Shown here in pieces: positions 15,681 through 59,549 of a DNA stretch of 64,000 nucleotides. The stretch spans positions 44,654 through 108,653 of the forward strand of contig JAGCYJ010000008.1 of the NCBI GenBank assembly GCA_017960855.1. Reading direction: 5' to 3'. Below the pieces are notes generated by a model, which saw only the letters and a list, made by a program, of their open reading frames with translations, had not been told where the DNA came from and did not search any database. The DNA comes from Alphaproteobacteria bacterium (GTDB lineage: Bacteria; Pseudomonadota; Alphaproteobacteria; Rs-D84). The translations under genes and the position numbers were made by a program. Every line of letters begins with the position of its first letter. Position 1 is the stretch's first letter.

Positions 15681-15705
15681 CGCCAAATCGGCGGTTTTTA
15701 TTTAT
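15681..15705. terminator. Bidirectional rho-independent terminator.
   Basis: AAAACCGCCAAATCGGCGGTTTTTATTT. Confidence 0.55.
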
Positions 15706-16516
15706 TTTCTATGTCGCTATCCAATGAACACTTGTCAACCAGTTCAGTATCATCTTTTATCTTTCCACCGTTGGTGACATACTTCAAACATTTTTCCATG
15801 GCTGATGGTGATACACACAACCAACACGCTTCATGCGCAACCGCAGAAATCTGGATTTTTGTCCTTTCTATTACCAAGATATCAACACACTGCAATGTCT
15901 TTTTATCAAGAATCTGGTTTAACTCGCACTTTTTACATTCACCCTGGACAATTGCTTGACGCTCTGTGGTTTCACAATCAACACATTTGTTGGAATTAGC
16001 ATCAAACACTGTATCCCCTGTACACTCAGGAACACATTTTCCATTACGAGCCACATACCCAGACGCGCATCCCAATGTCGTTTGCGGCTCGGTACAAACT
16101 TTGTCCGTTTGGGCTGTATCTACATCGCCACAAACATTCCATTTTTTTTGCCAAGTGCATTTTCCGCCCGCAACATCTTCTGTAAACGTTTCTGTTCTTG
16201 CAATCCAAGTTGGGCTTTCTATATATTTACCTTGTTTGCTTGTCGTACCATTGCAACACCAATATGTCTTACCGCCATAAGAAAAATGATCGCCATGATA
16301 CTGCCAGTGTGGCATATTTTTAGAACGAACACGATTACCATGACAAGATGGTGCCTGACTACCGCAGAACCAATGTACGTCATTTGCCCCATCATCCTTG
16401 ACATAGCATTCACTGTTATATCCAACCTTGAAACTAACGGCCTGCGACACCATGGGGACGATGGCTAGTATAAATCCAATAAAAGATGCGCGCTTTAAAA
16501 TCGTTTTCATCATTAT
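15698..16516 (-). CDS. Secreted cysteine-rich protein (~270 aa) containing EGF-like CxxGYxxxxGxC modules.
   Basis: It has a signal peptide, MKTILKRASFIGFILAIVPMVSQA. Cys content is high, with motifs such as CASGYVARNGKCVPEC...CVDCE. Confidence 0.55.
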   Translation of the reverse strand: MMMKTILKRASFIGFILAIVPMVSQAVSFKVGYNSECYVKDDGANDVHWFCGSQAPSCHGNRVRSKNMPHWQYHGDHFSYGGKTYWCCNGTTSKQGKYIESPTWIARTETFTEDVAGGKCTWQKKWNVCGDVDTAQTDKVCTEPQTTLGCASGYVARNGKCVPECTGDTVFDANSNKCVDCETTERQAIVQGECKKCELNQILDKKTLQCVDILVIERTKIQISAVAHEACWLCVSPSAMEKCLKYVTNGGKIKDDTELVDKCSLDSDIENK

Positions 16517-16521
16517 TGTCC

Positions 16522-18810
16522 TTAATCCTTGTCCAGATAGCAACGGTCATTTTCCCATGTACCATTTACCATATCGCATTCATATTTATAATATTCAAGG
16601 GTAAATCTGCATGTGTTGGTCAATGCATCATATTTTGCGTAATTATTGTTGCCAGTTTGAACATTGGCGACTTCGCATCTGAACTTCACCGTATTCTTGA
16701 AACAAGCACCATAAGATTTTAATTCCTTGTTATCGGTTCCATATGTAATTGGTTTGGTTGAACCGTATACGGCACGGTAAAATTCTGGCTCGTACGGATC
16801 GTTTGATGTATCAACGGACATCCAATCAAACCATATGCCATTGCGTTCTTCGCACATTTTTGCCATGGCGTCAGATATTTCCATTGAAATGTCGGTAACC
16901 AAATTATTTATTATGCTATCTACTGTTGTGCTTTGATATCTAACAACATCGGTACTGCAATATGTCTGGGCCATAGTAGAAAGGTTATTATAAATTTCAC
17001 TTGGGTCTTTCAAACGACAATTCCAAGGATATCCCATTGTGCCGGCTGTCGGTGTGCACAATTCTTTGGCATAATTCTGTAACGCCGTTTCGCATCCCTC
17101 GGTAATACGGATATTATCAACCGCATCAACAAAATTAGTCAATGCTGTCAAACCACAAGCCGATGTATTTGTCAACTTGCCCGTTTTGGAATCAAATACA
17201 CACGTTTCGCCGTTGCCATACAACGCAGCACAGGCGGAAACCTTATCTATACACATTTGTTTCGCGGCATATGCGGACAAAGCACCAACCATTTGCGCAG
17301 TTGTGTTATCAAAATCTTTCAGTGCAGAAGATTGCGTGTCATAACAATCAGCCATCGTGCTGACACAAGACATTTTAACTTCTTCTATTTTTTCATCTTG
17401 CGCCTGGGCAATTTCAATAAGGGCAGTGCGCTTGAACTCTTCCCATACAATCTTGGAAATATCACGACATGTATCCAATGCAGACGCCGCAAAAATCTTT
17501 TTAGATTCCAAGAACTTATCAAAGTCCGGATTTTGCGCCAACACGTCGCTATTAACACCGTCCAAATTAATCACTTCGGTCAATTTAAACAGACGCGGGG
17601 AATAAATTGCTTCGCCCGTAGTTTGATTGATATACACGCCGGTGTAATCCAAGCAACGTTTATAATTCGCACCGCACGCCGTATCGGCGGTCAACGCACT
17701 GCGCACCTTGCTTATACATTCATTGACATTGGCACTGTTGTGGGAACGATATTCTTCCAAACGCGCTTCGCGCAAATACTTTTCTGCGGTGCGCACAGTT
17801 TGTTTTACACTTTCCACCTTTTTATCAATATTCTTTTGATACGCATTACAATCTTGGGTAATCATGATGCTGTACGAAGAACGCGCCATATTTGCAACTG
17901 CGGAACTTTGACAAACATCGTTAATAAGTTTATTACACTGTTTGTTGGCGGCATTGTATAACGAAACCCCCTCCAAATCAGAGAAGTTTTGACCGCCACC
18001 AAATAGCGCACTGCCGCCATCTGCCCAAATATCATCAACATCATCAGTTAAATCAAAGGACAAGATTCCCAATGAATTTGATATACTGCTTGTCGTGCTG
18101 GCCTTCTTTTTCCCGGACAACAAATCGCCGATTTCATCCAAAATCTTGGCTGCGCCACTGGTATCTTTTTTGATTGCCGCTTCGCCAACCGTCGCGGTGT
18201 ACATTGCATTAACTTCGGCTGCGGTTTTATCAACAGCATTCAGGTTATTATCTTCAAATTTCATCAACAAAGTTTTTGCTTCGTCCAATGCGTTTTCGGT
18301 ATTACGAAAATCGGCGAAACGCGAACTGCAAAAACAACGACGATATGTATCATTTGCATTTGCACAGAATTGATCCATACATGTCGCATAGGAATCACGA
18401 CAGGCGGCATACCCACTGCCAATTTTGGAAACATCATTAAATACCGCAGTTGCGCGCGCAGTTGATGCGGTGCGTGAAACATTTGGTGTGCTTGCCGTGC
18501 GTGCGTTTGTTGTGCTGCGCGCATTTGCCGCGCGTGCCGGTCCGGTTGTTTTGGCACTGCGTGCGACGGTTGATGCACCGCGTGCCGCATTTGATATCAT
18601 TACCCCATGCGTAGATTCACGAACATTTGATGCCCGAACTTCTGGTCGGGTCACAGCCACACGGGAAACCGAATCGTTAGAACGAACATTCTGAGACGTT
18701 GCCGACGAACCACGTGGGTTAGGTGCCTGGACCGCCAACGCGTCAAGCCCGCCACACACAGCCACGGCTGCAATTAAACAACGCAAAAATCTTATATGAC
18801 TAAACACCAA
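16522..18810 (-). CDS. Large secreted protein (762 aa) with an S/T/A/R-rich linker and a Cys-rich C-terminal region.
   Basis: There is a signal peptide, then low-complexity SATSQNVRS...ARSTTNARTAS, then many Cys. It lies directly upstream of 15698..16516 on the same strand. Confidence 0.55.
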   Translation of the reverse strand: MVFSHIRFLRCLIAAVAVCGGLDALAVQAPNPRGSSATSQNVRSNDSVSRVAVTRPEVRASNVRESTHGVMISNAARGASTVARSAKTTGPARAANARSTTNARTASTPNVSRTASTARATAVFNDVSKIGSGYAACRDSYATCMDQFCANANDTYRRCFCSSRFADFRNTENALDEAKTLLMKFEDNNLNAVDKTAAEVNAMYTATVGEAAIKKDTSGAAKILDEIGDLLSGKKKASTTSSISNSLGILSFDLTDDVDDIWADGGSALFGGGQNFSDLEGVSLYNAANKQCNKLINDVCQSSAVANMARSSYSIMITQDCNAYQKNIDKKVESVKQTVRTAEKYLREARLEEYRSHNSANVNECISKVRSALTADTACGANYKRCLDYTGVYINQTTGEAIYSPRLFKLTEVINLDGVNSDVLAQNPDFDKFLESKKIFAASALDTCRDISKIVWEEFKRTALIEIAQAQDEKIEEVKMSCVSTMADCYDTQSSALKDFDNTTAQMVGALSAYAAKQMCIDKVSACAALYGNGETCVFDSKTGKLTNTSACGLTALTNFVDAVDNIRITEGCETALQNYAKELCTPTAGTMGYPWNCRLKDPSEIYNNLSTMAQTYCSTDVVRYQSTTVDSIINNLVTDISMEISDAMAKMCEERNGIWFDWMSVDTSNDPYEPEFYRAVYGSTKPITYGTDNKELKSYGACFKNTVKFRCEVANVQTGNNNYAKYDALTNTCRFTLEYYKYECDMVNGTWENDRCYLDKD

Positions 18811-32684: not shown

Positions 32685-33347
32685 TTACAACAACTTATCT
32701 TCTGCGTTTTCGCGACCAACATACGCCTTTAAATCATTATACATCTGACGCAGGTCAGCCGGCTGGGAATATTCAGCATCCGCATTTTTAATACGGATTG
32801 TTTCCAAACTTATTTGCGCCTGTTTTTTCAAGATTTGCGTCAAATGGGTTGCAAATGCCTTGGCATCTTCGGATTCATCAGCACCTTGCAACAACAGACC
32901 ACGATTTGGACGCGGCGACAAAAATGCATAATCGGAAATAGATGGGTCAGGCGAGACCAGTGCGAACCCAGAAACCTCTGGCCGACGCATCATCGCCTGC
33001 AATACATACCAAGCACCCAATTCGTGCCCCGCCAACCAAATCTTGTCGCTGTCTTCGTTTTTATTCTGAATCCAGTCAATGACCGTTGCAATATCCAACA
33101 TATTTTCAGTTGTCGTTCCCAACGAACCGTCTGAATCATTAACGCCACGATAATTGAACCGGACAACAGAAAAGCCGATATCCATAAACGCACGAAACAT
33201 TGCATACGACACACGATCGTTCATATGATGCTTTTGCCGTGGGTTTCCCGACAACACAACCGCCAATGGCGCCGCCGGTGTTTCCGACTTATGATATACG
33301 GCGTGTAATTTTCCCGCTTCACCAGTGATTATTATATCTACCATCAA
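32685..33347 (-). CDS. Alpha/beta-hydrolase fold protein with an atypical GHELG nucleophile elbow.
   Basis: WLAGHELGAW stands where GxSxG is expected. Confidence 0.5.
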   Translation of the reverse strand: MMVDIIITGEAGKLHAVYHKSETPAAPLAVVLSGNPRQKHHMNDRVSYAMFRAFMDIGFSVVRFNYRGVNDSDGSLGTTTENMLDIATVIDWIQNKNEDSDKIWLAGHELGAWYVLQAMMRRPEVSGFALVSPDPSISDYAFLSPRPNRGLLLQGADESEDAKAFATHLTQILKKQAQISLETIRIKNADAEYSQPADLRQMYNDLKAYVGRENAEDKLL

Positions 33348-33481
33348 ATATACCTTTGTTGAAACCTGCCTTTGACTAATTTATAGAACAAAGCAAACAC
33401 AATTTTCAATAAAAATATTTTTTGCTTTGACATAAGTGCCACGATTGTTCTAATATTCACAAGAGAGATAAAAGGTTTGCC

Positions 33482-34402
33482 ATGTCTAAACTAGGTTTTT
33501 TGGCTGTTTTCGCGTTATTCGGCGTGTGTAATGCATACGCAGAAGAGGTCACAACATACGACAGTTTTCAAACAATTTATATTGAAACGCCGGTGCAATC
33601 TTACTATGCGTACCCCGACGACCAAAACTTTATTCCAGAAACCGAGTTTATGCAACGCGCGGACAGTTTGAATTATGACCAAAACATAATTGATGCCCGC
33701 CAAGCAGAATCTGCGGCGCACCCGGGCGTTATGTTTGCGGATCGTCCAATGGTGATTTGCCGTAATTTTGGTTGTACCCGATTGAATGACCGCATTACGC
33801 GTACATTCTTGTTTAACAGTTTAGCAAATATGTTCATGATGAACGCACATTCACGTGTCTATATTTGCGAAGCAGATCCGTTCTCGCGCGATTGCTTGCA
33901 ATCTGGCATTTCTTTCCCTGTTCGCAGTGGTATTGCAAATGCGCTGGTTAAAATACCAAAAGCCACAATTTCCCAGGTCAATGTTTCAACTGGTCTGTCC
34001 AAAGCAACCGTCGGTATGACATATGAATTGTTGGTAAATGGTGTATCGCGCGTGTGCGAACCAACTGTTATGGACATCGTGATTCCTATCAATTCCCAGG
34101 CAACATTGTCTAACCGTGAATTCACATGCAATATGACCAGCGACGGTTTAAGCAATGTTTCGTTATTAGTCAATATTGACTATATTGATTTGGACTATGG
34201 CATTTTGGGTGGCTATTATTCTTTGGGCATGCAAGGACCAACCACCGGCGGTGGCACAGGTTATGCATTGTTCAAGACAGAATTCACAACTGGTGGTATG
34301 AAGTTCCGCGCGGCCGTAAATGATGCCGCGATGGCGGGACCAGGCGACGGAATGCGCGTTATCCAGCCGGGCGAATATGCGGTTGGGCCACTGGCGAAAT
34401 AA
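33482..34402 (+). CDS. Secreted hypothetical protein (306 aa).
   Basis: Signal peptide MSKLGFLAVFALFGVCNAYA. Confidence 0.5.
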   Translation: MSKLGFLAVFALFGVCNAYAEEVTTYDSFQTIYIETPVQSYYAYPDDQNFIPETEFMQRADSLNYDQNIIDARQAESAAHPGVMFADRPMVICRNFGCTRLNDRITRTFLFNSLANMFMMNAHSRVYICEADPFSRDCLQSGISFPVRSGIANALVKIPKATISQVNVSTGLSKATVGMTYELLVNGVSRVCEPTVMDIVIPINSQATLSNREFTCNMTSDGLSNVSLLVNIDYIDLDYGILGGYYSLGMQGPTTGGGTGYALFKTEFTTGGMKFRAAVNDAAMAGPGDGMRVIQPGEYAVGPLAK

Positions 34403-42013: not shown

Positions 42014-42535
42014 ATGACAGAAAAAACATACAAAAAACCAAGTGAAATGACCGCCGAAGAAAAGGCGGGGCGTATATTGCGCTTGAAGCACAAATTTTAT
42101 GATATTAGCACTGTTCCGTCGTTGTTGTTGCAAGATGAACTGGAACATCGTGCTTTGACCACCGATGCTAAATTGATGGCCGGCATAGAAAAACTGCAAA
42201 CGCTAGAACACAAGGTTACCACATTAACCAAACAATACGAAGCCAAAGTATTGGAACAAAAAATTCTGCTGGCACCACAACATCAACAGCAACTTGCCCA
42301 GATGAACGACGCGCACACATTGGAACGCAATAAGCTTTTGTCATCAACAAACCCATTTATACGCGCACGGGCAGAACAATTACGTACCAAACAAGAAAAA
42401 GAACAGGCAAAATTATTGGCCAAGCAAGCCGCAACATTGAACGAAGTTCGTAATAAAGCGGCAAAAAAATTAAATCAAGCCCAAGGCCGACTTTTTTCAT
42501 TGTTTATGACGTATGTTCATCAAATCTATAAATAA
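42014..42535 (+). CDS. Hypothetical coiled-coil protein (173 aa).
   Basis: ORF with a following terminator at 42541-42573. Confidence 0.4.
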   Translation: MTEKTYKKPSEMTAEEKAGRILRLKHKFYDISTVPSLLLQDELEHRALTTDAKLMAGIEKLQTLEHKVTTLTKQYEAKVLEQKILLAPQHQQQLAQMNDAHTLERNKLLSSTNPFIRARAEQLRTKQEKEQAKLLAKQAATLNEVRNKAAKKLNQAQGRLFSLFMTYVHQIYK

Positions 42536-44401: not shown

Positions 44402-44424
44402 TTTCTGTTAAAATCGTATAAAAT

Positions 44425-44463
44425 TGACCGAGTATGTTATTGACATGCTCGGTCATTTTTTTC
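44425..44463 (+). terminator. Rho-independent terminator after rpsA.
   Basis: TGACCGAGTATG...CATGCTCGGTCA followed by T7. The ORF-track 'start' of the giant ORF (TTG at 44424) lies inside this hairpin. Confidence 0.6.
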
Positions 44464-44492
44464 TACCCTTTAACATAAGGAAGGAAAAAATC

Positions 44493-47400
44493 ATTCAAAA
44501 ACGCACGATTCTTAAACGAATTATAGCGGCGGTATTGTTTATCGCCGTGGCTTTCGTTGATATGACGGCGACGAATGCCGCAACGGCGCGCCGTGTTGCG
44601 CAACCACAAACAACAACCACAACGAATCGTACCATAACCCCCAGAACCACAACTGCACGAACAACAACGAAGCGAACCACGGCCAAGAATACTTCAACCG
44701 CAAAGACAACCACCACAACTGCACAGCGCGTGGCAAATCGTACAGTCCCTACAACAAAAGCATCAACAGAGCAACCAAAAACCAACGTTGTTTCGCGTAC
44801 CGCCACAAATAAAAATGCGGGGGCGACGCGCCGATATACACAATCGTCAACACAATCACGCACAATAACCCGTGCCACGACTCTGACCGGCACAGTTGGT
44901 GCCAAATCAGGCGCTGTTGGTGGTTTGGTAAAAATGTACGTTCCAGATGACCTGCGCCTTAGTGACGAAAATATAAAGAAATACGTAGAATTATCATCAT
45001 CGGGCGACGGCAATAATTATATCTTGTTCAAGTTATATAATAATCAACTACCTTCACTTGCCACTATGTTCAACAGAATAAAAGTGCAGCACAACGGTAA
45101 TACATACGGTGTTTATGCCGAAAACTCAACCACAAGCAACAATATTGTTAATACAAGTGGCACTCAAACCGCCACATCTGTTCCAAACAGCATGTATTTG
45201 GTTCAATCACAATCAACGACTGGTGATACATGCAGCAAAGATTCAGATTGTGGTGCTGGTACATGCAATTCTGGCACATGCCAATGTTTTCTTAATCACA
45301 CAACCCAATCGGGCAATTTTTGCGCTTGTGAAACCGGCTATGCATTAAGTGGTGGTCAATGTGTAAACGCAGCAGAGAATGATTCAACAAACATAATAAC
45401 ATGTACCGGTGCAAGCGATGAAATCGTCGTATCTGGTAACAATTGTGTTAAATCAAAATTCGAAATTACCACTGTAAATAACGTTGCCTTTTCCGACGAA
45501 GACACCATTGCTTTTAACATAACCGCTATTGGAACATTCTATGTCGATTGGGGCGACGAAACACAACCAGGAACACAAATTATCGTTTCCAATACCCTTG
45601 ACACCACCAAATACCAACATAAATATTCCGGCGAGAAATCTCGCAAAATTCGTATTGGGGGTGGCGCAACCGGCGGTTATTCTGATACAAAGGCGGTAAT
45701 GGAATTTTGTTATTATGGTTTGGCACAAGACTACGTACAAAAACTTAGCGGTTCAATTGGGGCACTGTTCCCGATACGCGCTGGTGCAACAAACCCAATA
45801 CCGAAATTCAATGGAACATTTGCATATTGCAACCAGCTTACGACGGTTCCGGCCACATTGTTTAGTGGCATTAATGTCACGACCCCATCTATGTTCGAAA
45901 ATACCTTTAAACAATGTATAAACTTAAACAACATTCCATCTGGTTTGTTCGGTGATATAAGCGACACCCCCAAGCAGGATTTGTTTAAATCTACATTTGA
46001 TGGTTGCAAAAAACTTACAAGTGTGCCAGCTGGTTTATTCAGTGGTATTCAGGGTGCACCTGCCAAGGAACTGTTTTATGAAACGTTTAAGGGCTGTTCC
46101 AGTTTGACCAGCATACCCGATAATTTATTCAGTGGCATCCAGGGCGCACCTGCCGACCAAATGTTTTATGGTACATTTGATTCTTGTTCCAGTTTGACTG
46201 CCATACCCAATAATTTATTCAGTGGCATCCAGGGGAAACCCGCCGCAGCTATGTTTAACCGTACATTTGCCGCATGCAGCAGTTTGACCAGCATACCAGC
46301 AAATCTGTTTAGTGGCATATCGGGTGCACCAGCAGCATCAATGTTTCACGGAACTTTTTCCAGTTGTTCCAATATCCAGAGTTTGCCGACCGGGCTGTTC
46401 AGTGGCATAGTTGGCCCAACAGCAATACGAATCTATGATTCTACATTTAGTGGATGCAAGGGGCTTACCGGTAACATACCCGATGATTTCTTTGGCAAAT
46501 TATATGGGGTACCGTCTTCGTATATGTTCCAAAATACATTTACAAATTGCAGCAATCTTACCGGTGATGTTCCGTCCAGTATGTATAAGAACCTGCAAGA
46601 ATACCCCGTTAGTCCAGGATACCCAGGTCCCACAAACACATACAGCCAAGCTTTCTATGGTTGCACCAATATGGCGACAAGTTGTGAAAATGGAACATAC
46701 GAAGATCCGGCATCTGCACCGTTCAAATCCGAATGGGATGGGCATGTTGCCTGTACCGATGGCAGCGTCGCGGAAATGCCAGAATGTGCAGAAAACCAGT
46801 TTGTCGCAGATGACACATGTGTTGATTCAAAATTCGCCGTCACAACAACCAACAACACCAGACATTTCGCATTCACAATCGGTGCCAAAGGTTTAATCTT
46901 TGTTGATTGGGGCGATGGCGTGACAGAGGTTCTGGGGCAACCAGACGCCATTGAAAAAACATATTCACATGACTATACGACCGCGGGCGAATACACAATT
47001 CGTTTCAGCGCCGCGCCATCAGATTATCCGAACCCTTATAGCAAAAGCATTATTCGTTTTGGCTATAGCGGTAACGAGGATGATGCACGCGCAGAAACGC
47101 CGGCCAATGTTAAATCAGTCAGCGGTTCATTGGGCGAATTGTTCCCGAATATAGATGGCGCAAGTCACGAACCGGCATTCATAAGGACATTCAGCGACTG
47201 TTCTAATTTGGAATCTATACCCGCAGGTTTGTTTAGCGGCATAACAAAACCGACACCTTATATGTTTAGTGGCACGTTCAAAAATTGCACCAAACTTACC
47301 AGCATACCAAGCACACTGTTTGCTGGCATATCGGGTACGCCGACCAAGTATTTGTTCTCTAATACATTTGCGGGTTGCACCGGCATTACCAGTATTCCAG

Positions 47401-50400
47401 AAACCTTATTTTCAACGATTACTGGCGAGTTATCCGAAGGTCTATTTGCGGGTACATTCGAAGGTTGTTCGGGTCTTACAGGACAAATACCGAATAATCT
47501 GTTCAGTAGCTTGTCTGGTCCGGACAATCGTTCTTTCCAAAATATGTTTAAAGATTGCACAGGGCTTTCGGGGTACGTTCCCACTAGCTTCTATATTAAT
47601 AAAGATTTGTATGCAGGTTCCAGCAGTTCAAGCGTGTTTGAAAACACTGGTTTGGCTACAGAATGTGCATCACCACTGGTTCTGGATCCACGCGCACCAC
47701 AAAATTATAACGGCAACCCGTACTGGGATTATAAAGTAGCATGCAATTATCCGTGTACATCTGACAAAATTGATGCGCATAAAGATGGCTTGGAATGCTA
47801 TGATCCAGAATTTGAAATCGTAACAACGGACGACACCACGGAACTGAAGTTCGTATTGACCGCAACTGGAACATTCTATGTTGATTGTGGCGACGACGGT
47901 ACATTGTCCAGAAGGAACACCGGCAGTGGCGCCAGCGTAACAGGAAACACCATAACCCAACAAACTAGTGTTGTTTCAGTATATACTTGTTCTTATCCGA
48001 CCGCAGGCAGACACACCATACGTATGGCGGGCGAAGCAACCGGATATACAGACAATGATTCGGTCGGGTTGTCATACGAAGAACCGGCGGCGATAACATT
48101 CTATCATGCCGACTATGCACCAACCAGCCAGAATATCACGGAAATTCGTGGTTCATTGGCGACAATATTCCCAGAGGTTGGTTCCCGTTCTGACATCACA
48201 GAATGTCCGCGTTTCCACGGAACATTCCGCAACGCACAAATAAAAACAATACCCGAAGGGTTGTTTGATGGGTTGTCCGGTTGTGGGCAATACACGTTCT
48301 ATTATACCTTTGCGAACAATGAACAACTTGAGAGTATACCAGCTGGATTGTTCAGCAGCATCACCAACGGTGTAAAGAATATGTTTGATTCCACATTCCG
48401 TGGTTGCACCAAACTTACCAGCATACCAAGCAATTTGTTCAGCAACCTTCATAGCGTTGATCAAAGAATATTCGAAAGTACCTTCGCCGGTTGTACAGGG
48501 CTGACAGCTCTGCCGGTTGGGTTATTCCAAAACATTACCACAGCGGCACCATACATGTTCTGGAACACATTTAATGGTTGTTCAAATATGGGCAGCTATA
48601 TACCATCAACCGCATTCAAGGGCTTAACCGACAACAACTGTCCAACTGAAAGCAATATGTGGACTGGGACCTTCAATAATACCAGTATGTCTACGATGTT
48701 CTGTCCACAGGGCACCACAAAATATACTTCTTGTTATTCTGACGGTAAATTTGGTAATTGGATTTCATGTGAAGAGGGTGGTTCCACTGGTGGTGACGAA
48801 GACCCACAGCTTTTTACATGCACTGGGGCGACCGATGAAATTGTGGTTAGTGGCACACAGTGTGTCAAAGCCGCACTTGTCGTAACAACAAAAGAACAGA
48901 ACTCTTTCAAATTTGATATCAGTGCCGGCGGAACATTCTATGTAGATTGGGGCGATGGCAACGTTGAAACGATTGACCGCAGTGGCACCACATCATTAAA
49001 CACAGTTAGCCATAACTACACAACCGCTGCAAAACGCACTGTTCGTTTTGGTGGTGTTGCCAATGCATATTCCACCATCCAAACACATCCTGCAATTCGT
49101 TTTTATTCTGGTGACGGTTGCGACATTTATGGAATTGACCAATCCAGTTCTTTGGGTGCAATGTTCCCGATTATTGCATCGGGTGGCAACGGCAACACGC
49201 CACGATTCTATGAAACATTCCGCAACTGCATTGATAAAAACAATACCAGCGCAGGAACCAATGGAACGGCACTTATTCCGGCTGGTTTGTTCAGTGGAAT
49301 AAATGGTGCACCGGTGTCATATATGTTCTATGACACGTTTGCCGGTTCTAATTTCCGCGATCCGTCATCGGGTCCGACAATACCATCGGGGCTTTTCAGC
49401 GGTATAACTGGTGCGCCGGCGGAACACTTGTTTGACGGAACATTCAGAAACATTGAATATATGTCTGGGAACATACCAGCCGATCTGTTTGCCGGCATCC
49501 AAGGGACACCAGCGCCGTATATGTTTGCACGAACATTCGCCTATGCTGGTGGCGCATGGGAAAATCGTGATTTCCGTATAGATTCGGCTTTGTTCGGATT
49601 TATTACTGGCACACCAGCCAAAGGGATGTTTGAATCAACATTTGAAGGGTCTTGGTTAACCAATTTACCAATCGGACTGTTTGCGAATATAAGTGGTGCA
49701 CCGGCAATCGATATGTTTGATTCCACATTTAAAGAATGCACACATATTTCTGGCGCGACATTATCAAATACCACGTTCGGGAATATATCTGGCACGGTTG
49801 CCACTGGTATGTTCAAGAATACATTTAAGAATATCACAGGCATCACTGGTTCTATTCCAAACAAATTATTTGGAACCTTGACCGGTGCCCCAGCGCAAGA
49901 TATGTTTGCAGGCACATTTGAGGGCTGTACCGGAATCACAGGTGCTATCCCCAGTGGACTGTTTGGCTCTATTAGTGGCAACATACAATGGCCAATGGCA
50001 TTCAACAGCACGTTTTATAACACCAGCATTACCAGCATACCCGAAGATTTATTCAGTGGTATCACTGGTACAGATTTTGAACATTCGTTCACCTATACAT
50101 TTGCCGGCACAAAGATAACCAGCATTCCAGAAAACTTATTCGCCGGCATAACTGGAACCTATGAAAGTATGTTCACTGGGACGTTTATGAACTGTGAAAA
50201 CCTTACCACTGTTCCTGCTGGCTTGTTCAACCGTATCACAGGCACCCCGAAACCTTTGATGTTTGACGAAACGTTCGCAGGTTGCACCAGTTTGCAGCAA
50301 GTACCATACAACCTGTTTGGTGGAATATCTGGCGCACCTGTAAATAAAATATTCCCAGCGACATTCAAGGACTCTGGATTGACATCCATAGACAATCGCT

Positions 50401-51494
50401 TGTTCAGCGGTATAACTGGTACGCCGGCAACCAACATATTCTATGAAACATTTTCAGGATGTACAGGACTTACCGCATTACCAACCGAACTGTTCAAGAA
50501 CATATCTGGCACACCTGCGGATTCAATGTTCCATAGCACATTTGAAGATTGCAGCAACATAACCGGCAGCATCCCCAACGATTTATTTGGACCGGTATCC
50601 GGCAATCCGGCCGCGGGTATGTTCGCGTGGACATTTATAAGATGCTCTTCATTAACAGGCGAGGTGCCAACCAATATGTTTGTGGGGCTGAATCACGATT
50701 ATACAATGCCGGAAAATACTTCGCCATTCACGAATGCGTTCTATAAAACTGGTATGCCGGCACAATGTCCAGAAGGGTATAAGTTGCACCCCTATGCAGC
50801 AAAATATAGAACTTATTGGGATGGTCGCGTTGCATGTGTTGTGGATGAAAACGGCGGCGGTTCTGGTGGCGGCGAAACAACAAATGAGTGTACCACCAAT
50901 TCTGACTGTGGCGCGGGCACATGCGATTCTGGCACATGCCAATGTTTTACCAATGCAATTATTGTTAATGGCCAATGTGTGTGCGAAGACGACCACGAAC
51001 AAACCAGTACTTCGTGTATAGCATGCCCTGACAATGGCAATATGGGAGAAGCCATACCTGGTGGTGCAAGGAATTGCACAATCGCATACCACAGTACTGA
51101 GGGTAGTGCCTGTGAAGAAGTTTATGAAAACTGCATATACTATTGTGAAGAAGGTTATCATCAACAAGGTGATGCATGTGTAGCAACTGAATGCGAAGCT
51201 GATTCTGACTGTGGGGCGGGAATATGCAATTCTAGTATGTGCGAGTGTTTTGAAAACACAAATAAAATTAATGGTCAATGTGTATGCAAAGATGACTATG
51301 AACAAACCGACGTTTCATGTACGGCTTGTTCAGACAGCGAGTGGTATTACGACGACATACCTGGTGGCGTAAAAGAGTGCGAACATGCATACCACAGTTC
51401 TGGAGGCAGTGTTTGTGAAGAACTAGTTACTGGAAACTGTAACATCTATTGTAACGATGGCTATCACGAAGAGAACGGCGAATGCGTACAATAA
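44493..51494 (+). CDS. Giant secreted repeat protein (~2330 aa). It combines a T/R-rich linker, EGF-like Cys modules, four super-repeats and long arrays of ~30-aa BspA-like LRR repeats.
   Basis: The reading frame is continuous. The signal/TM segment is KRIIAAVLFIAVAFV. The EGF-like modules read CGAGTCNSGTCQCF...CxCExGYxxxGGxC, one N-terminal and two C-terminal. Four modules start C..DEIVVSGxxCVK..FxxTT...F...A.GTFYVDWGDG. There are dozens of LFSGIxGxPAxxMFxxTFxxCxxLTSIPxx units. The start is ambiguous: a strong SD, AAGGAAGGA at 44477-85, is followed only by ATC/ATT in frame (44490/44493). Confidence 0.8.
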   Translation: MQKRTILKRIIAAVLFIAVAFVDMTATNAATARRVAQPQTTTTTNRTITPRTTTARTTTKRTTAKNTSTAKTTTTTAQRVANRTVPTTKASTEQPKTNVVSRTATNKNAGATRRYTQSSTQSRTITRATTLTGTVGAKSGAVGGLVKMYVPDDLRLSDENIKKYVELSSSGDGNNYILFKLYNNQLPSLATMFNRIKVQHNGNTYGVYAENSTTSNNIVNTSGTQTATSVPNSMYLVQSQSTTGDTCSKDSDCGAGTCNSGTCQCFLNHTTQSGNFCACETGYALSGGQCVNAAENDSTNIITCTGASDEIVVSGNNCVKSKFEITTVNNVAFSDEDTIAFNITAIGTFYVDWGDETQPGTQIIVSNTLDTTKYQHKYSGEKSRKIRIGGGATGGYSDTKAVMEFCYYGLAQDYVQKLSGSIGALFPIRAGATNPIPKFNGTFAYCNQLTTVPATLFSGINVTTPSMFENTFKQCINLNNIPSGLFGDISDTPKQDLFKSTFDGCKKLTSVPAGLFSGIQGAPAKELFYETFKGCSSLTSIPDNLFSGIQGAPADQMFYGTFDSCSSLTAIPNNLFSGIQGKPAAAMFNRTFAACSSLTSIPANLFSGISGAPAASMFHGTFSSCSNIQSLPTGLFSGIVGPTAIRIYDSTFSGCKGLTGNIPDDFFGKLYGVPSSYMFQNTFTNCSNLTGDVPSSMYKNLQEYPVSPGYPGPTNTYSQAFYGCTNMATSCENGTYEDPASAPFKSEWDGHVACTDGSVAEMPECAENQFVADDTCVDSKFAVTTTNNTRHFAFTIGAKGLIFVDWGDGVTEVLGQPDAIEKTYSHDYTTAGEYTIRFSAAPSDYPNPYSKSIIRFGYSGNEDDARAETPANVKSVSGSLGELFPNIDGASHEPAFIRTFSDCSNLESIPAGLFSGITKPTPYMFSGTFKNCTKLTSIPSTLFAGISGTPTKYLFSNTFAGCTGITSIPETLFSTITGELSEGLFAGTFEGCSGLTGQIPNNLFSSLSGPDNRSFQNMFKDCTGLSGYVPTSFYINKDLYAGSSSSSVFENTGLATECASPLVLDPRAPQNYNGNPYWDYKVACNYPCTSDKIDAHKDGLECYDPEFEIVTTDDTTELKFVLTATGTFYVDCGDDGTLSRRNTGSGASVTGNTITQQTSVVSVYTCSYPTAGRHTIRMAGEATGYTDNDSVGLSYEEPAAITFYHADYAPTSQNITEIRGSLATIFPEVGSRSDITECPRFHGTFRNAQIKTIPEGLFDGLSGCGQYTFYYTFANNEQLESIPAGLFSSITNGVKNMFDSTFRGCTKLTSIPSNLFSNLHSVDQRIFESTFAGCTGLTALPVGLFQNITTAAPYMFWNTFNGCSNMGSYIPSTAFKGLTDNNCPTESNMWTGTFNNTSMSTMFCPQGTTKYTSCYSDGKFGNWISCEEGGSTGGDEDPQLFTCTGATDEIVVSGTQCVKAALVVTTKEQNSFKFDISAGGTFYVDWGDGNVETIDRSGTTSLNTVSHNYTTAAKRTVRFGGVANAYSTIQTHPAIRFYSGDGCDIYGIDQSSSLGAMFPIIASGGNGNTPRFYETFRNCIDKNNTSAGTNGTALIPAGLFSGINGAPVSYMFYDTFAGSNFRDPSSGPTIPSGLFSGITGAPAEHLFDGTFRNIEYMSGNIPADLFAGIQGTPAPYMFARTFAYAGGAWENRDFRIDSALFGFITGTPAKGMFESTFEGSWLTNLPIGLFANISGAPAIDMFDSTFKECTHISGATLSNTTFGNISGTVATGMFKNTFKNITGITGSIPNKLFGTLTGAPAQDMFAGTFEGCTGITGAIPSGLFGSISGNIQWPMAFNSTFYNTSITSIPEDLFSGITGTDFEHSFTYTFAGTKITSIPENLFAGITGTYESMFTGTFMNCENLTTVPAGLFNRITGTPKPLMFDETFAGCTSLQQVPYNLFGGISGAPVNKIFPATFKDSGLTSIDNRLFSGITGTPATNIFYETFSGCTGLTALPTELFKNISGTPADSMFHSTFEDCSNITGSIPNDLFGPVSGNPAAGMFAWTFIRCSSLTGEVPTNMFVGLNHDYTMPENTSPFTNAFYKTGMPAQCPEGYKLHPYAAKYRTYWDGRVACVVDENGGGSGGGETTNECTTNSDCGAGTCDSGTCQCFTNAIIVNGQCVCEDDHEQTSTSCIACPDNGNMGEAIPGGARNCTIAYHSTEGSACEEVYENCIYYCEEGYHQQGDACVATECEADSDCGAGICNSSMCECFENTNKINGQCVCKDDYEQTDVSCTACSDSEWYYDDIPGGVKECEHAYHSSGGSVCEELVTGNCNIYCNDGYHEENGECVQ
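45840..46600 (+). repeat. First array of ~30-aa LRR-like tandem repeats inside the giant gene (degenerate at the DNA level).
   Basis: About 25 copies of LFSGIQGAPAKELFYETFKGCSSLTSIPDN-type units. Confidence 0.7.
49270..50700 (+). repeat. Main array of ~30-aa LRR-like tandem repeats inside the giant gene.
   Basis: About 45 consecutive units, from ...LFSGINGAPVSYMFYDTF to ...GEVPTNMFVGL. Confidence 0.7.
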
Positions 51495-51530: not shown

Positions 51531-51938
51531 TTATTTACGCACCTTGTCGCGCAACATACGCAACAAAATACATGCCACAAGTGTACGATATGCTGCGCCT
51601 TTAAAAAATTTGGCTGTTTCTGCTGGCTTATCGTCTGTATATGTTTTAGTCAATTCAATCCATTCTTCTGCTGGATCAACGATATCTAACACCGTCCCCC
51701 ATACTTTCTGTGCAATATTTGGTTTTGGCAGGGGCATATCGTCAGCTACGATATGAATATGACGGCTTTTTGGGCTATACGCAAAGGTCAAATCATAGAC
51801 CACACCTTCCAAGACCTTGTCAAATATTGCATGGCCGTCTTTCTTTAACGGGATAAAGACACCATGTTTGATGGCCGACTTGGCTTCTTTGAATAACTTC
51901 TTGTCTTCTGCTGACATTTTCTTTGTTTCTTTTGTCAT
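51531..51938 (-). CDS. Hypothetical protein (135 aa).
   Basis: ORF only. Confidence 0.45.
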   Translation of the reverse strand: MTKETKKMSAEDKKLFKEAKSAIKHGVFIPLKKDGHAIFDKVLEGVVYDLTFAYSPKSRHIHIVADDMPLPKPNIAQKVWGTVLDIVDPAEEWIELTKTYTDDKPAETAKFFKGAAYRTLVACILLRMLRDKVRK

Positions 51939-52014
51939 TAGAGCATCCTTTTTGTTATCTTATAAGAATATTATAGGACAAAACACAAAAATGTCAAGTA
52001 TTCTACAAATATAA

Positions 52015-53572: not shown

Positions 53573-54775
53573 ATGCCAAAGCCCACAAACAAGAAATCTT
53601 TTTATTCTGATTTAAGTGTGCGCTATCCAGTGAAAGGAAGTATTAGTGAACGTGTTGAATCCCTGTCTGAATTGTTCACAGAATGGTTCCTTTATGATTC
53701 CACAACGGCAAATTCACTTGAATCTTTCATTGAAAGTAATGGGTTGTCTTGCTTGTTTACACCCACAGATTTCACCGATTTAATATGTGGCTATGCATAT
53801 CTGGACGAACCACTGACCACCCTTGTTCCATTAATGTTGCCGTTTGAAATAACCCCGGAAAAAATGTACCGAATGAATGCGGAAGCACAAAAGGCCGGTG
53901 GGCGAATCGTAGAATCGGTCCCCGAAATAATCTATGAAATAATACAAGAAATTTTACAAGAACATAAATCCGCCCGACAAGAACGCAAGAAAGCTAAAGA
54001 CCGCAGATATTACGAAAGAAACCGCGATGAAATATTGGCACAACAACGCGAATATTACGAAGAACATCGTGAACAAAAATTGATACGACAACACGAACGC
54101 TACGAACAACACCGCGATGAAATATTAGCACAACAACGCGAATACTACGAAGAACATCGTGAACAAAAATTGGTACAACAACGCGAATATCGCGAGCAAC
54201 ACCGCGATGAAATATTAGCACAACGTCGCGAATATTACGAGCAACATCGCGAAGAAATATTGGCACAACAACGCGCACATCGCGAAGCACATCGCGAAGA
54301 AATGTTGGCAAGATACCATAGATATTATCAAGAAAACCGAGAAAAAAAATTGGCACAACACCATAAATATTACAAAGACCATCGCAAAGAAACATCGGCA
54401 CGACACCATGAATATTACGAAGAACATCGCAAAGAAATATTGGTACGACAACGCGAAAACGACAAAAAAAATAAGGATCGCGACGAATCAGCAAAATCAG
54501 TATGTCCGACATACTTGTATTTATTACAAATGCGCCACTATCACCGCGCCGATTACTTAAAATTATTTCGCCGGCGTAACCCTGTCGGATTTGCCATCAA
54601 AAAATGTCCGGCATTACAAGAAATGGATTACACAAAGTGTGCGTTCTGTGATGGAACCGAAAATCCACATACAGTATGCGAAATGCAGAAAATGGCAACC
54701 ATGCCCAGTGGTATCATTGAAACAATGCCTGATTTCGTTGCAATTATAAAAGCAAAACAACAAACAACCCGTTAA
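53573..54775 (+). CDS. Repeat protein (400 aa). It has tandem 30-aa charged repeats, each two 15-aa sub-units rich in R/E/H/Y/Q, and a C-terminal Cys/His cluster.
   Basis: The repeats read RDEILAQQREYYEEHREQKLIRQHERYEQH, about 5 copies. The C-terminus contains CPTYLY...KKCPALQEMDYTKCAFCDGTENPHTVCEMQKM. The gene lies 5 nt downstream of the radical-SAM gene. Confidence 0.6.
   Translation: MPKPTNKKSFYSDLSVRYPVKGSISERVESLSELFTEWFLYDSTTANSLESFIESNGLSCLFTPTDFTDLICGYAYLDEPLTTLVPLMLPFEITPEKMYRMNAEAQKAGGRIVESVPEIIYEIIQEILQEHKSARQERKKAKDRRYYERNRDEILAQQREYYEEHREQKLIRQHERYEQHRDEILAQQREYYEEHREQKLVQQREYREQHRDEILAQRREYYEQHREEILAQQRAHREAHREEMLARYHRYYQENREKKLAQHHKYYKDHRKETSARHHEYYEEHRKEILVRQRENDKKNKDRDESAKSVCPTYLYLLQMRHYHRADYLKLFRRRNPVGFAIKKCPALQEMDYTKCAFCDGTENPHTVCEMQKMATMPSGIIETMPDFVAIIKAKQQTTR
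54000..54470 (+). repeat. Tandem DNA repeat of ~90 bp (with a 45-bp sub-period) inside 53573..54775.
   Basis: Recurring cgcgatgaaatattggcacaacaacgcgaatattacgaagaacatcg units with point differences. Confidence 0.65.
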
Positions 54776-57288: not shown

Positions 57289-59529
57289 TTAGTACAACGG
57301 TGGGAAACATTCACCATCCACACAGCACATAAATCCTTCTTCTGTGACAGCAAGTTCTTCGCCCGGGCAACAGCCATTTTCGTCCGCCGGAACACCGTTT
57401 GCACAAGTCACTTCGTCTGACTGTTCTGCATCATTATAAACAACTTCGTGCAATTCAGATGCGACTATTTCAGGAGCCCAACCTTCGTCCACTGGCATTG
57501 GTTGAACATCTGTGTCCATAGAGTAGAGTGAATTGAAAGAAGATTCATCCACAACCGTTTCAACACGCTGCAACGGTTCCACCATCACGGGTTCTGGTTC
57601 ATATTCAGGTTCTTCGGCCACAAACATTTTTTCTTGCTGTGAAACGTTATAGCCCGGTTTGCGCGCTAAAATTTCTTCTTCGCTTGGAATTGGCTTCTTT
57701 TCCGGCTCATATGTTGCAACCGATCTGAACGGAACAAGTGGCTCTTCTGCAACAACTTCTACGGGTTCAGCAGGAACATCCACCGGGGTTGTTTCCACAA
57801 TTGGTTCTGGTTCCGGTTCTGCAACCACCACGGGTTCTGGTTCAACGACAACCTCTGGTTCCACCACTACAGTTTCTGTTTCCGTGTTGGTAACTTCTGT
57901 TTCTTCAACTGTCGTTGTTGCTACAAACGGACTTGGGATATTCGTTTCTTCGGTTACGGTTGTTGTTTCCTCTGACTTGCTGGTCAATGCGCCCAAATCA
58001 GGCACCACCGCGCCATTCTTCCGCTGATACAGCCACAATGTAAATATAGACAGTGCAATCAACAAAATAAGCATCAGATAGTACAAGAATGTCGGTTTTT
58101 TGGTGTAATGTACTTCTGTTTCAATAACAGTATTTTCACTTATTGGCGAAACAGGACGCACAGGTGCAACCGGTTCGGCTGGGGCGATTGGTTCAATTTC
58201 CACAATCGTCGTCGGCTTCGTTTCCTGTGCCGGTTCTGTCACAGTCGTTTCCACCTCAAACGACGCAGGTTCAACGGTCGTCGTAACATCAACTTGTTCT
58301 GTTGTTGTCGTCGTTGTCTGTTCGGTCGTTGTAGTGTTTTGTTCCACTGGCGTCAAACTATCCAACATAGGTGTCGCGTTATTGTTTTCTTCTGTTGTTT
58401 CATACTCAGTGGTGGTTGTAGTCGTTTCCGTTGTCTCACCAGAATCCGCCGGCGGTGTAAATGACAGCGGAACAGTAGCGACTTCTGGAACCCCGTGTTC
58501 AACAACGTGTTCGTCTTCTTCATCCGCGTGGAAATCAATCGGTTTAAACGCGATATTGTCGTCCAAAACTTCTGGATCTGTATCAAACAATGGTTTTACT
58601 TCTTCTTCGTCCGCCACTTCATCTGCCTTTGCTTCATAAGTTTCTGAATCAGAAAAATCTTCTGAATACAAATCGTCTTCGCCGGTTCCTTCTTCGTCCT
58701 CTTCGTAATCGTCAGTTTCAGATTCGGGTTCTTCTTCTACTTCTTCCTCTTCTTCAACTTTCTCTTGGACAACGGGCGTTCTTCTTTTTGCCACCGAAAC
58801 CGTTTTTGCGCGACGCACAGGTTTAACATCCGCATGCCGCGCCAAAATAGCACGTGCAATTTCCGCATCATCTTCGGCCGTCGCCAATCTGCGCTGGGCA
58901 TTAGTCAAACGCTTTTTAGCACGCGCCAATTTTTCATTTGTTGCGTCAATTTGCGCTTCGGTCTTTAAGATTTTAGCCGCCGAAGTTTTTGTCGGTTCGC
59001 GTCCGATATTACGTTTTTGTTCGGACAACTTTGCCTTTAATTCTTTTAACCGCGCACGCAATTCAGAAATTGTGTCTTCGGTGCGTTCAATTGTTTCGCG
59101 TGCCTTGTTCGCAGTATCTTCGGCCGCCGCCAAACGTTCCTTGGCAGAACGACGAACCGCCATAATACGAAAACGCTTCAGATTGTCCAACGCATCGTCC
59201 AAATCTTCGTCAGATTCGTACGCTTGGAATAATTCCGCATAAACATCCAAACCACCGTATTCAATGTCCAGCTTTTGATATTTGTTATCTTTTTTCGGAC
59301 GCACAGTTTCCAAATCAATGCCATAGTCGTTGACCAAAACATCATCCCACTTGCGTTCATCAAAAGAATCAATCACCAACAAAACATTTGGTTTGTCGGC
59401 ATTGATAGTTTCGTCCAACACGAAAATCAATTCGTGTGCAGAATCATAATACGCACGGATGCGATTGCCGTTAATCTTGTAATCAACCGCTTTGATTTTT
59501 CTAGAAGTTTTTTCTCTCTCGCGTGGCAT
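57289..59529 (-). CDS. Large acidic low-complexity membrane protein (~745 aa). It has an N-terminal coiled-coil/basic region, T/E/P/V-rich tracts, one TM helix and a C-terminal Cys-rich tail.
   Basis: Acidic runs such as EEEEEVEEEPESETDDYEEDEEG. The TM helix is FLYYLMLILLIALSIFTLWLY. The C-terminus is CANGVPADENGCCPGEE...FMCCVDGECF. Confidence 0.5.
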   Translation of the reverse strand: MPREREKTSRKIKAVDYKINGNRIRAYYDSAHELIFVLDETINADKPNVLLVIDSFDERKWDDVLVNDYGIDLETVRPKKDNKYQKLDIEYGGLDVYAELFQAYESDEDLDDALDNLKRFRIMAVRRSAKERLAAAEDTANKARETIERTEDTISELRARLKELKAKLSEQKRNIGREPTKTSAAKILKTEAQIDATNEKLARAKKRLTNAQRRLATAEDDAEIARAILARHADVKPVRRAKTVSVAKRRTPVVQEKVEEEEEVEEEPESETDDYEEDEEGTGEDDLYSEDFSDSETYEAKADEVADEEEVKPLFDTDPEVLDDNIAFKPIDFHADEEDEHVVEHGVPEVATVPLSFTPPADSGETTETTTTTTEYETTEENNNATPMLDSLTPVEQNTTTTEQTTTTTTEQVDVTTTVEPASFEVETTVTEPAQETKPTTIVEIEPIAPAEPVAPVRPVSPISENTVIETEVHYTKKPTFLYYLMLILLIALSIFTLWLYQRKNGAVVPDLGALTSKSEETTTVTEETNIPSPFVATTTVEETEVTNTETETVVVEPEVVVEPEPVVVAEPEPEPIVETTPVDVPAEPVEVVAEEPLVPFRSVATYEPEKKPIPSEEEILARKPGYNVSQQEKMFVAEEPEYEPEPVMVEPLQRVETVVDESSFNSLYSMDTDVQPMPVDEGWAPEIVASELHEVVYNDAEQSDEVTCANGVPADENGCCPGEELAVTEEGFMCCVDGECFPPLY

Positions 59530-59549
59530 TTTCTTTCCTGTGGTTTCAA

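Follow-up and report, generated by a model that had tools for sequence, protein, structure and literature searches.

A giant head-and-solenoid repeat protein with a strain-variable body at the rpsA-adk locus of a rumen alphaproteobacterium

The window analysed here comprises 64,000 nucleotides of a rumen alphaproteobacterium of the Rs-D84 lineage (GenBank assembly GCA_017960855.1, contig JAGCYJ010000008.1, positions 44,654 to 108,653 of the forward strand) and carries, between rpsA and adk, an open reading frame (ORF) for a giant protein built from leucine-rich repeats (LRRs). We found that the body of this protein is replaced and shuffled between near-identical genomes, which is a new finding and, although absent from an earlier description, the protein's most informative property. 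Its modules join an LRR subtype of 29-31 residues to a characteristic head domain, a combination that, iterated in giant proteins, is a novel variation on the LRR theme. The protein is probably a Sec-exported, multivalent, strain-variable binding protein or adhesin of a bacterium with a reduced genome of about 0.9 Mb; surface exposure, ligand binding, a recombination mechanism and diversifying pressure on the protein are what we infer.

Modular architecture and fold of the giant protein

Counted from its TTG, the ORF runs uninterrupted over 2356 codons. The GenBank product (MBP5364028.1, "hypothetical protein", locus J6Y49_01610 of the metagenome-assembled genome (MAG) Alphaproteobacteria bacterium) starts at the ATG at 44445 and has 2349 aa. 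Genes with many repeats are easily mis-assembled, and at this one the contigs of related strains do break, but a chimeric or decaying ORF is very improbable: the 2349-aa product, with 2 substitutions, was called on four independent ENA contigs from metagenome assemblies, the TTG-start form of 2356 aa is present in Logan with those same 2 substitutions, the 7-kb frame stays open, and the structural models of its modules are confident. Because the repeat copies within the gene are only 60-88% identical in DNA and the same product recurs in the four assemblies, we conclude that the ORF is neither a product of repeat collapse nor a broken gene. A preliminary description of the window, which had proposed a single giant ORF, was thus confirmed on this point, as it was for the signal segment and the Thr/Arg-rich linker that follows it.

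Behind these two elements and a small N-terminal domain lies a body of four super-repeats bracketed by Cys-rich modules (Table 1). The repeat of about 30 residues that had been noted earlier is present in about 35 units with the consensus LFsGIsGtPaxxMFxxTFxgCsxLTsIPxx. Among the 31 clean units, 13 have 30 aa, 9 have 29 aa and 6 have 31 aa; adding four degenerate first units gives about 35. The four super-repeats described before are likewise there, each with a head carrying a GTFYVDWGDG-type motif (170-179 bits each with a hidden Markov model (HMM) built from these four heads), but instead of about 450 aa each they measure about 462, 323, 354 and 678 aa.

The coding sequence of the first Cys module recurs at 50899 with 88% identity, so that the two copies bracket the four super-repeats. 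In their first halves the C-terminal Cys units share homology with the N-terminal module, and the second half weakly resembles the Cys-rich region of EphA2 (E 0.04); about 5 related sequences, poorly aligned, are available for these units. All three modules had been called similar to epidermal growth factor (EGF). The modules exist and show the pattern CxCxxGYx6C, but they have no EGF match in Pfam, their EB module match (E 0.0075) lies below the cutoff, and the EGF assignment falls below every curated threshold. "EGF-like" is therefore a description at the level of pattern, and the modules may be said to resemble EGF, EB and ephrin-receptor modules weakly.

Pfam returned nothing above threshold for the whole protein, including LRR_5 and DUF285. 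Searches with segments gave weak matches only, to LRR_5 (E 0.0017), the EB module (E 0.0075) and TSP_Ig-like (E 0.017). The best LRR_5 segment reached 18.7 bits against a gathering cutoff of 27.7, and LRR_5 matched 5 of 18 modules, all at E values of 0.0018 or above. TIGR02167 ("PARCEL repeat-containing surface protein") exceeded its cutoff of 30 bits with 62.8 bits for the whole protein, but this score is a sum of many weak partial matches, confined to profile positions 1-12 and without any stretch that is significant by itself. Related proteins gave clearer matches. The homologue P0003, with 33-residue units of the form IDTSSATNTSSMFxxTFxGCxSLTSIP, passes DUF285 at E 7e-18, and the paralogue P0004 passes LRR_5 at 68.4 bits; Cys-rich regions of both pass Ephrin_rec_like, and other homologues carry Flg_new. 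These proteins tie the repeat of the giant protein to both LRR_5 and DUF285/PARCEL.

We modelled super-repeat 2 with AlphaFold2 from an 18-sequence alignment (predicted local distance difference test, pLDDT, 90.8; predicted TM-score, pTM, 0.90). The model consists of an N-terminal hairpin followed by a β-sandwich head packed onto an LRR solenoid, and the repeats form a right-handed solenoid on a conserved hydrophobic scaffold, as is characteristic of the LRR superfamily. The solved structures closest to the module are TpLRR and BspA-type LRRs, and the module profile matches 4fs7 by sequence (E 5e-7), which agrees with the earlier suggestion of BspA-like LRRs with a longer period. Modelled alone, the head reached a pLDDT of 91.7, and a Foldseek comparison with solved structures gave it nothing better than E 0.09 and no close relative. 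Its motif WGDG...HxY...GxYxI resembles that of PKD domains, and its profile matches the PKD domain 4xed at E 0.0013, but the structural match is poor (TM 0.32-0.39); we therefore label it a PKD-motif-bearing β-sandwich and assign it to no family.

Several known systems resemble these modules in part. In the BspA/TpLRR proteins (LRR_5; Treponema pallidum TpLRR, 6mlx, and Bacteroides ovatus BACOVA_04585, 4fs7) the period is about 23 residues rather than 29-31, whereas in the giant protein a β-sandwich precedes each array and a Cys cap ends it, and the modules number four, against up to about 25 in relatives. The PARCEL repeat is a tandem repeat of 25-26 residues whose coding DNA has dyad symmetry (PMC2996958). 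The PARCEL/DUF285/TIGR02167 proteins (LppQ-type proteins of Mycoplasma, lipoproteins of Listeria; PMC2996958) share with the giant protein sequence-variable arrays in membrane-targeted ORFs, and the summed TIGR02167 score and the DUF285 match of P0003 point the same way. However, the units differ in length, no single repeat matches the model, the gene stands in a housekeeping context without association with mobile elements, and an LRR solenoid is predicted in place of the amphipathic helices proposed in 2010; in a crude test for PARCEL-type dyad symmetry, the 2.3 kb of repeat-coding DNA contained only 3 short inverted repeats. Internalins (Listeria InlA and InlB) also form one rigid unit from an LRR solenoid and a β-sandwich, as the pTM of the model indicates for the giant protein, are exported by Sec and share the presumed binding function, so that the two may work similarly. 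The β-sandwich of the giant protein lies N-terminal and not C-terminal to the LRRs, though, its repeat has 30 rather than 22 residues, LPXTG and GW anchors are missing, the bacterium is presumably diderm, and the sequences revealed no relationship.

Table 1. Features of the giant gene and its surroundings (positions in the window).
Feature	Position	Strand	Remarks
Whole ORF of the giant protein	44424..51494	+	TTG 44424, or GenBank ATG 44445
Terminator-like hairpin	44425..44462	+	14 pairs and a T7 run, directly 3' of the rpsA stop; putative role in expression
N-terminal export signal (predicted)	44445..44579	+	basic n-region, hydrophobic IIAAVLFIAVAFV, probable signal-peptidase site between TNA and A
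Thr/Arg-rich low-complexity linker	44583..44918	+	contains a 15-nt tandem repeat; 22-aa indel between alleles
Conserved N-terminal domain	44919..45227	+	about 100 aa; 97% identical in the syntenic orthologue; no Pfam match
First Cys-rich (EGF-like) module	45231..45362	+	8 Cys, CGAGTCNSGTCQCF...CACETGYALSGGQC
Super-repeat 1	45393..46778	+	β-sandwich head (45393-45779), 9 LRR units, Cys-containing cap
Super-repeat 2	46779..47747	+	head, 5 LRR units, cap; modelled by AlphaFold2
Super-repeat 3	47748..48809	+	head, 5 LRR units, cap; weak LRR_5 match (E 0.0017)
Super-repeat 4	48810..50843	+	head, 16 LRR units (several with insertions), cap
Two tandem Cys-rich units	50883..51491	+	101 aa and 14 Cys each, 54% identical to one another
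Hypervariable segment against L059	45287..51954		body of the giant protein and convergent ORF

Variation, expression and export at the rpsA-adk locus

The closest relative of the giant protein (P0002/P0028; 2,092 aa, 257 aa shorter) is encoded at the same locus of a related genome, here L059, in the gene order orf169, rpsA, giant gene, small convergent ORF, adk, radical-SAM gene and corA. Between the window and L059, protein and DNA identities are 99.8% and 97.1% for S1 (the rpsA product), 98.4% and 95.5% for Adk, and 99.0% and 95.6% for CorA, whereas the giant proteins are about 44-46% identical and the DNA of their bodies cannot be aligned. DNA collinearity extends through the flank and the first ~860 nt of the giant gene, is lost at 45286 inside the first Cys module and is back at 51955, just upstream of adk. 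In the proteins, near-identity holds over the N-terminal 260 aa, which comprise signal peptide, linker and N-domain, save for the 22-aa indel; it breaks down exactly at the first Cys module. When the heads of the two alleles are compared, the best matches lie off the diagonal and reach at most 57%, which argues for shuffling of modules. The long array is the fourth in the window and the third in L059, the L059 allele lacks the C-terminal Cys units, and the small convergent ORF (51531..51938, minus strand, 135 aa) is replaced in L059 by an unrelated ORF of 137 aa, neither of which has a family match.

Contigs of other related strains tend to end within the giant gene or just before it: L067 reaches 183 codons into the gene, and L068 ends in rpsA. 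Assemblies typically break where co-existing strains diverge, and these ends are consistent with co-existing divergent alleles that break the assembly graph. We considered and rejected a polymorphic toxin with its immunity protein, a reading in which the variable body co-varies with the small downstream ORF: the giant protein has no toxin or enzymatic domain, and the small ORF is convergent and without a family match. A diversity-generating retroelement is unlikely as well, as the divergence is global, includes rearrangement of modules and is not limited to a few codons. No phase-variation device (homopolymer tracts, invertible promoters) was seen at the locus.

Two further genes near the locus are divergent between the window and L059. 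The product of orf173 (42014..42535, plus strand) is 52% identical to its counterpart, and orf400 (53573..54775, plus strand) has a counterpart of 654 aa with an internal duplication and 57-63% identity; both lack family matches. Together with 51531..51938, these two intervals are divergence hot spots, and the neighbouring housekeeping genes are 92-99.8% identical.

Both candidate start codons, TTG 44424 and ATG 44445, are overlapped by the terminator-like hairpin that follows rpsA, and the true start of the gene is therefore uncertain. A strong Shine-Dalgarno-like AAGGAAGGA lies 3' of the hairpin at 44476-44485, with in-frame ATC and ATT but no canonical start codon 5-8 nt 3' of it (window 44476-44496). 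The gene may accordingly be translated from a non-canonical codon, and its transcription may depend on read-through from rpsA; we looked for a promoter-like site upstream of it at the locus and found none.

Export by Sec is supported by the N-terminal signal, whose hydrophobic segment spans residues 33-45 (a 13-residue core), as well as by homologues that have predicted classical signal peptides immediately ahead of their first head. A lipoprotein was considered and rejected, because homologues have the Cys found after their signal peptide at each internal head too, which makes it a residue of the domain, and because the giant protein itself has no Cys at that position. Pfam and NCBIfam gave no match in the giant protein to an autotransporter barrel, RTX repeats, a type I secretion system (T1SS) signal or a sorting domain, so that it differs from autotransporters and RTX/T1SS adhesins, and no secretion genes adjoin the giant gene at the locus.

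Family distribution and genomic context

The heads and repeats define a large, unnamed gut family which, in reference genomes, is confined almost entirely to uncultured gut and rumen Alphaproteobacteria. The head HMM found 1-11 heads in 25 of 25 homologues (1,300-3,900 aa), and repeat units across the family mostly have 28-34 residues. Searched against 1.84 billion cluster representatives, the module profile matched 24,191 at E<=0.001, 7,119 at E<=1e-10 and 1,846 at E<=1e-30. Proteins of up to 7,626 aa occur in the top 150 matches, some of which have 25 or 26 matched stretches. The architecture had been called highly unusual for a bacterium, which does not hold in view of at least 1,846 cluster representatives at E<=1e-30; it typifies a whole clade of gut Alphaproteobacteria. 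When GTDB species representatives were scanned with an alignment of five head sequences (GTFYVDWG), 51 loci were obtained. Apart from one weak hit they belong to uncultured MAGs labelled Alphaproteobacteria, Rickettsiales or proteobacterium, many of them with the name Candidatus Enterousia, and several genomes are multi-copy. The sources that the records give, where they give one, are gut, rumen or faeces, from buffalo, yak, sheep, goat, deer, horse and Hadza humans.

In Enterousia (order Rs-D84), genomes are described as smaller than 1 Mb, respiration as lacking and glycolysis as incomplete; from genomic inference, its lifestyle is probably partner-dependent (PMC12306168). The interaction candidates named for it are only unspecified "hypothetical membrane-bound proteins" (PMC12306168). 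The contigs that carry relatives of the window's SecA, at 87% identity, measure 0.82-0.89 Mb, which fits a genome size of about 0.9 Mb. The surroundings are chromosomal and housekeeping in character (ArgRS, L13, S9, trigger factor, ThyA, S1, Adk, CorA, SecA, DnaE, DnaK), and the presence of GcrA agrees with the label Alphaproteobacteria.

The P0004/P0032 cluster (2,565 aa) represents a second member of the family. Its GenBank accession neighbours that of the giant protein, it occurs in the sample of the window's protein (SAMN15830195), and its gene lies downstream of rpsD. Family members repeatedly stand beside translation-related housekeeping genes, after rpsA in the window and after rpsD at L073, and a smpB-tatD-holB-dacA cluster lies near a member at both L073 and L005. 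No secretion-system neighbours of family members were found at L073, L005 and L006, and exact look-ups of P0001 and P0004 gave no record.

Elsewhere in the window, an exported Cys-rich protein of 762 aa (16522..18810, minus strand) has a signal peptide, a basic Ser/Thr/Arg/Ala-rich linker like the stalk of the giant protein, 30 Cys and no Pfam match. It adjoins an exported Cys-rich protein of 281 aa (15698..16543, minus strand), also without a Pfam match, with the motif CASGYVARNGKC. The CxxGY...GxC motif of the giant protein had been reported from this second protein and does occur there once, but it is a short, generic pattern. Both proteins may belong to the same surface repertoire as the giant protein. 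A 767-aa ORF (57289..59592, minus strand; no Pfam match) is one gene of 746 aa in L061 and is divided into 261 and 482 aa in L062, from another sample, which suggests a strain-specific frameshift or stop. Two more ORFs have no Pfam family, one of 805 aa (790..3207, minus strand) and a Cys-rich one of 370 aa with a signal peptide (60740..61852, plus strand). GcrA, a cell-cycle regulator, and a prepilin peptidase (Peptidase_A24) are encoded side by side at 59550..60717, and the peptidase gene is a hint that this reduced genome has a type II secretion or type IV pilus system. The cumulative GC skew has its minimum near 32-34 kb of the window, and genes are mostly on the minus strand at 1-33.3 kb and mostly on the plus strand at 33.5-54.8 kb; a replication origin in or near the intergenic stretch at ~33347-33482 would fit.

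Proposed role of the giant protein and its family

An adhesin or binding role, as put forward in the preliminary description, is the most plausible reading of the giant protein. The variable body of four rigid modules sits on a conserved N-terminal part (signal peptide, basic Thr-rich stalk and small N-domain); in each module a β-sandwich head caps a TpLRR/BspA-like solenoid of 5-16 turns, and a Cys-containing cap closes the solenoid. Cys-rich spacers resembling EGF and ephrin-receptor modules bracket this body. We propose that the solenoid faces, with variable residues on a fixed F/L/I/C scaffold, would bind ligands on other cells, host surfaces or particles, and four modules would confer multivalency. 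Recombination would swap or reshuffle the body between strains, with its 5' junction in conserved Cys-module sequence, and closely related strains would therefore differ in binding specificity.

Several observations weigh against this proposal. Expression may be low or conditional, because the start codons lie in a terminator-like hairpin and no promoter-like site precedes the gene. The protein could be periplasmic, because no device for outer-membrane translocation or anchoring was found and the organism is presumably diderm. It also lacks a C-terminal domain of ~75 aa (...C...lHi......TtPalNi..g...Y...........l.v..g..Y...D.s; no Pfam match) that is common to 16-18 of 25 homologues, among them P0004, P0009-P0017, P0019, P0021, P0022, P0024 and P0025, and that may serve in anchoring or secretion; the syntenic orthologue lacks it too. 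Finally, the variability is seen in the two alleles of the rpsA-adk locus that were recovered. A metagenome scan with the N-domain returned only two Cys-module matches and no third allele, exact look-ups with Adk and S1 gave the same allele only, and a homologue search with the conserved N-terminal 266 aa gave no matches, not even the query protein itself.

We also considered, tentatively, a wider version of the binding proposal, in which the head-LRR family is the cell-contact apparatus of the whole clade of reduced-genome gut Alphaproteobacteria (Rs-D84/Enterousia-like), organised as a system of cassettes. The export and stalk part would be fixed, LRR modules may be swapped by recombination at conserved Cys-module junctions, and the head may be a previously undescribed domain.

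It is less likely, though not mutually exclusive with binding, that the LRR modules form a variable shield, as a coat or decoy whose diversity comes from evasion of phages that use surface receptors, of host IgA or of protist grazing. The extreme divergence of alleles between conserved flanks and the several paralogues per genome fit such a role, as does the relationship of the repeat to PARCEL/DUF285, since PARCEL repeats occur in expressed variant surface lipoproteins (PMC2996958), and the variable surface lipoproteins of mycoplasmas with such repeats would be the closest parallel. On the other hand, LRR solenoids are typically ligand-binding scaffolds, and the phase-variation devices sought at the locus were not seen.

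An effector or adhesin for a eukaryotic host cell, such as animal epithelium or a rumen ciliate, built from eukaryote-like modules, appears similarly unlikely. Binding to host cells is known for BspA-type LRR proteins of oral and gut microbes, and this general precedent is joined by the weak matches of the Cys modules to EB and the Cys-rich region of EphA2, by the homologues that pass Ephrin_rec_like and by the animal gut, rumen and faeces named as sources of the family. Yet all EGF-type matches lie below threshold, these bacteria have no evident link to eukaryotic cells, and the published hypothesis concerns dependence on other cells in general (PMC12306168). The comparison with amoeba and arthropod symbionts in the preliminary description was not upheld: the LRR type is that of TpLRR, BspA and PARCEL, found in bacteria and protists, and the organism is a rumen bacterium with no sign of a eukaryotic host.

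Retention in the envelope is more doubtful still. A Sec-exported structural protein of the periplasm or cell envelope, for example a scaffold, would agree with the lack of a recognisable outer-membrane secretion or anchoring domain in Pfam and NCBIfam, and its attachment to the inner membrane or peptidoglycan could be provided by the basic Thr-rich stalk and the N-domain, both of which are conserved. A body of ~44% identity between flanks of 98-99% is hard to reconcile with an internal structural role, however, and the prepilin peptidase gene (60205..60717) is compatible with, though no proof of, export by a type II secretion or type IV pilus type of system.

The binding protein or adhesin that we favour has an analogue, and no more than that, in the giant, fast-evolving surface proteins of Patescibacteria (candidate phyla radiation) and mollicutes: the gene is very large for a genome of ~0.9 Mb, there are several paralogues, strains vary, and a role in cell-cell contact is presumed. 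To our knowledge, nothing is known of how gut and rumen Alphaproteobacteria with genomes below 1 Mb make contact with other cells. Each copy of the head-LRR family takes up about 0.8% of such a genome, and there are several copies. This genomic investment, the restriction to one clade and the drastic variation between near-identical genomes make the family an obvious candidate for the specificity determinant of a partner-dependent lifestyle. Should the cassette organisation prove true, every strain would be specific for a partner or host of its own, and bacteria would have a counterpart to combinatorial LRR receptors. The 29- to 31-residue LRR subtype and the β-sandwich head without a close solved relative both merit family models, and the rpsA-adk locus is a possible strain marker for rumen metagenomes. 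The fold and the likely role are in themselves unsurprising; what the giant locus offers is a concrete handle on cell contact by these bacteria.

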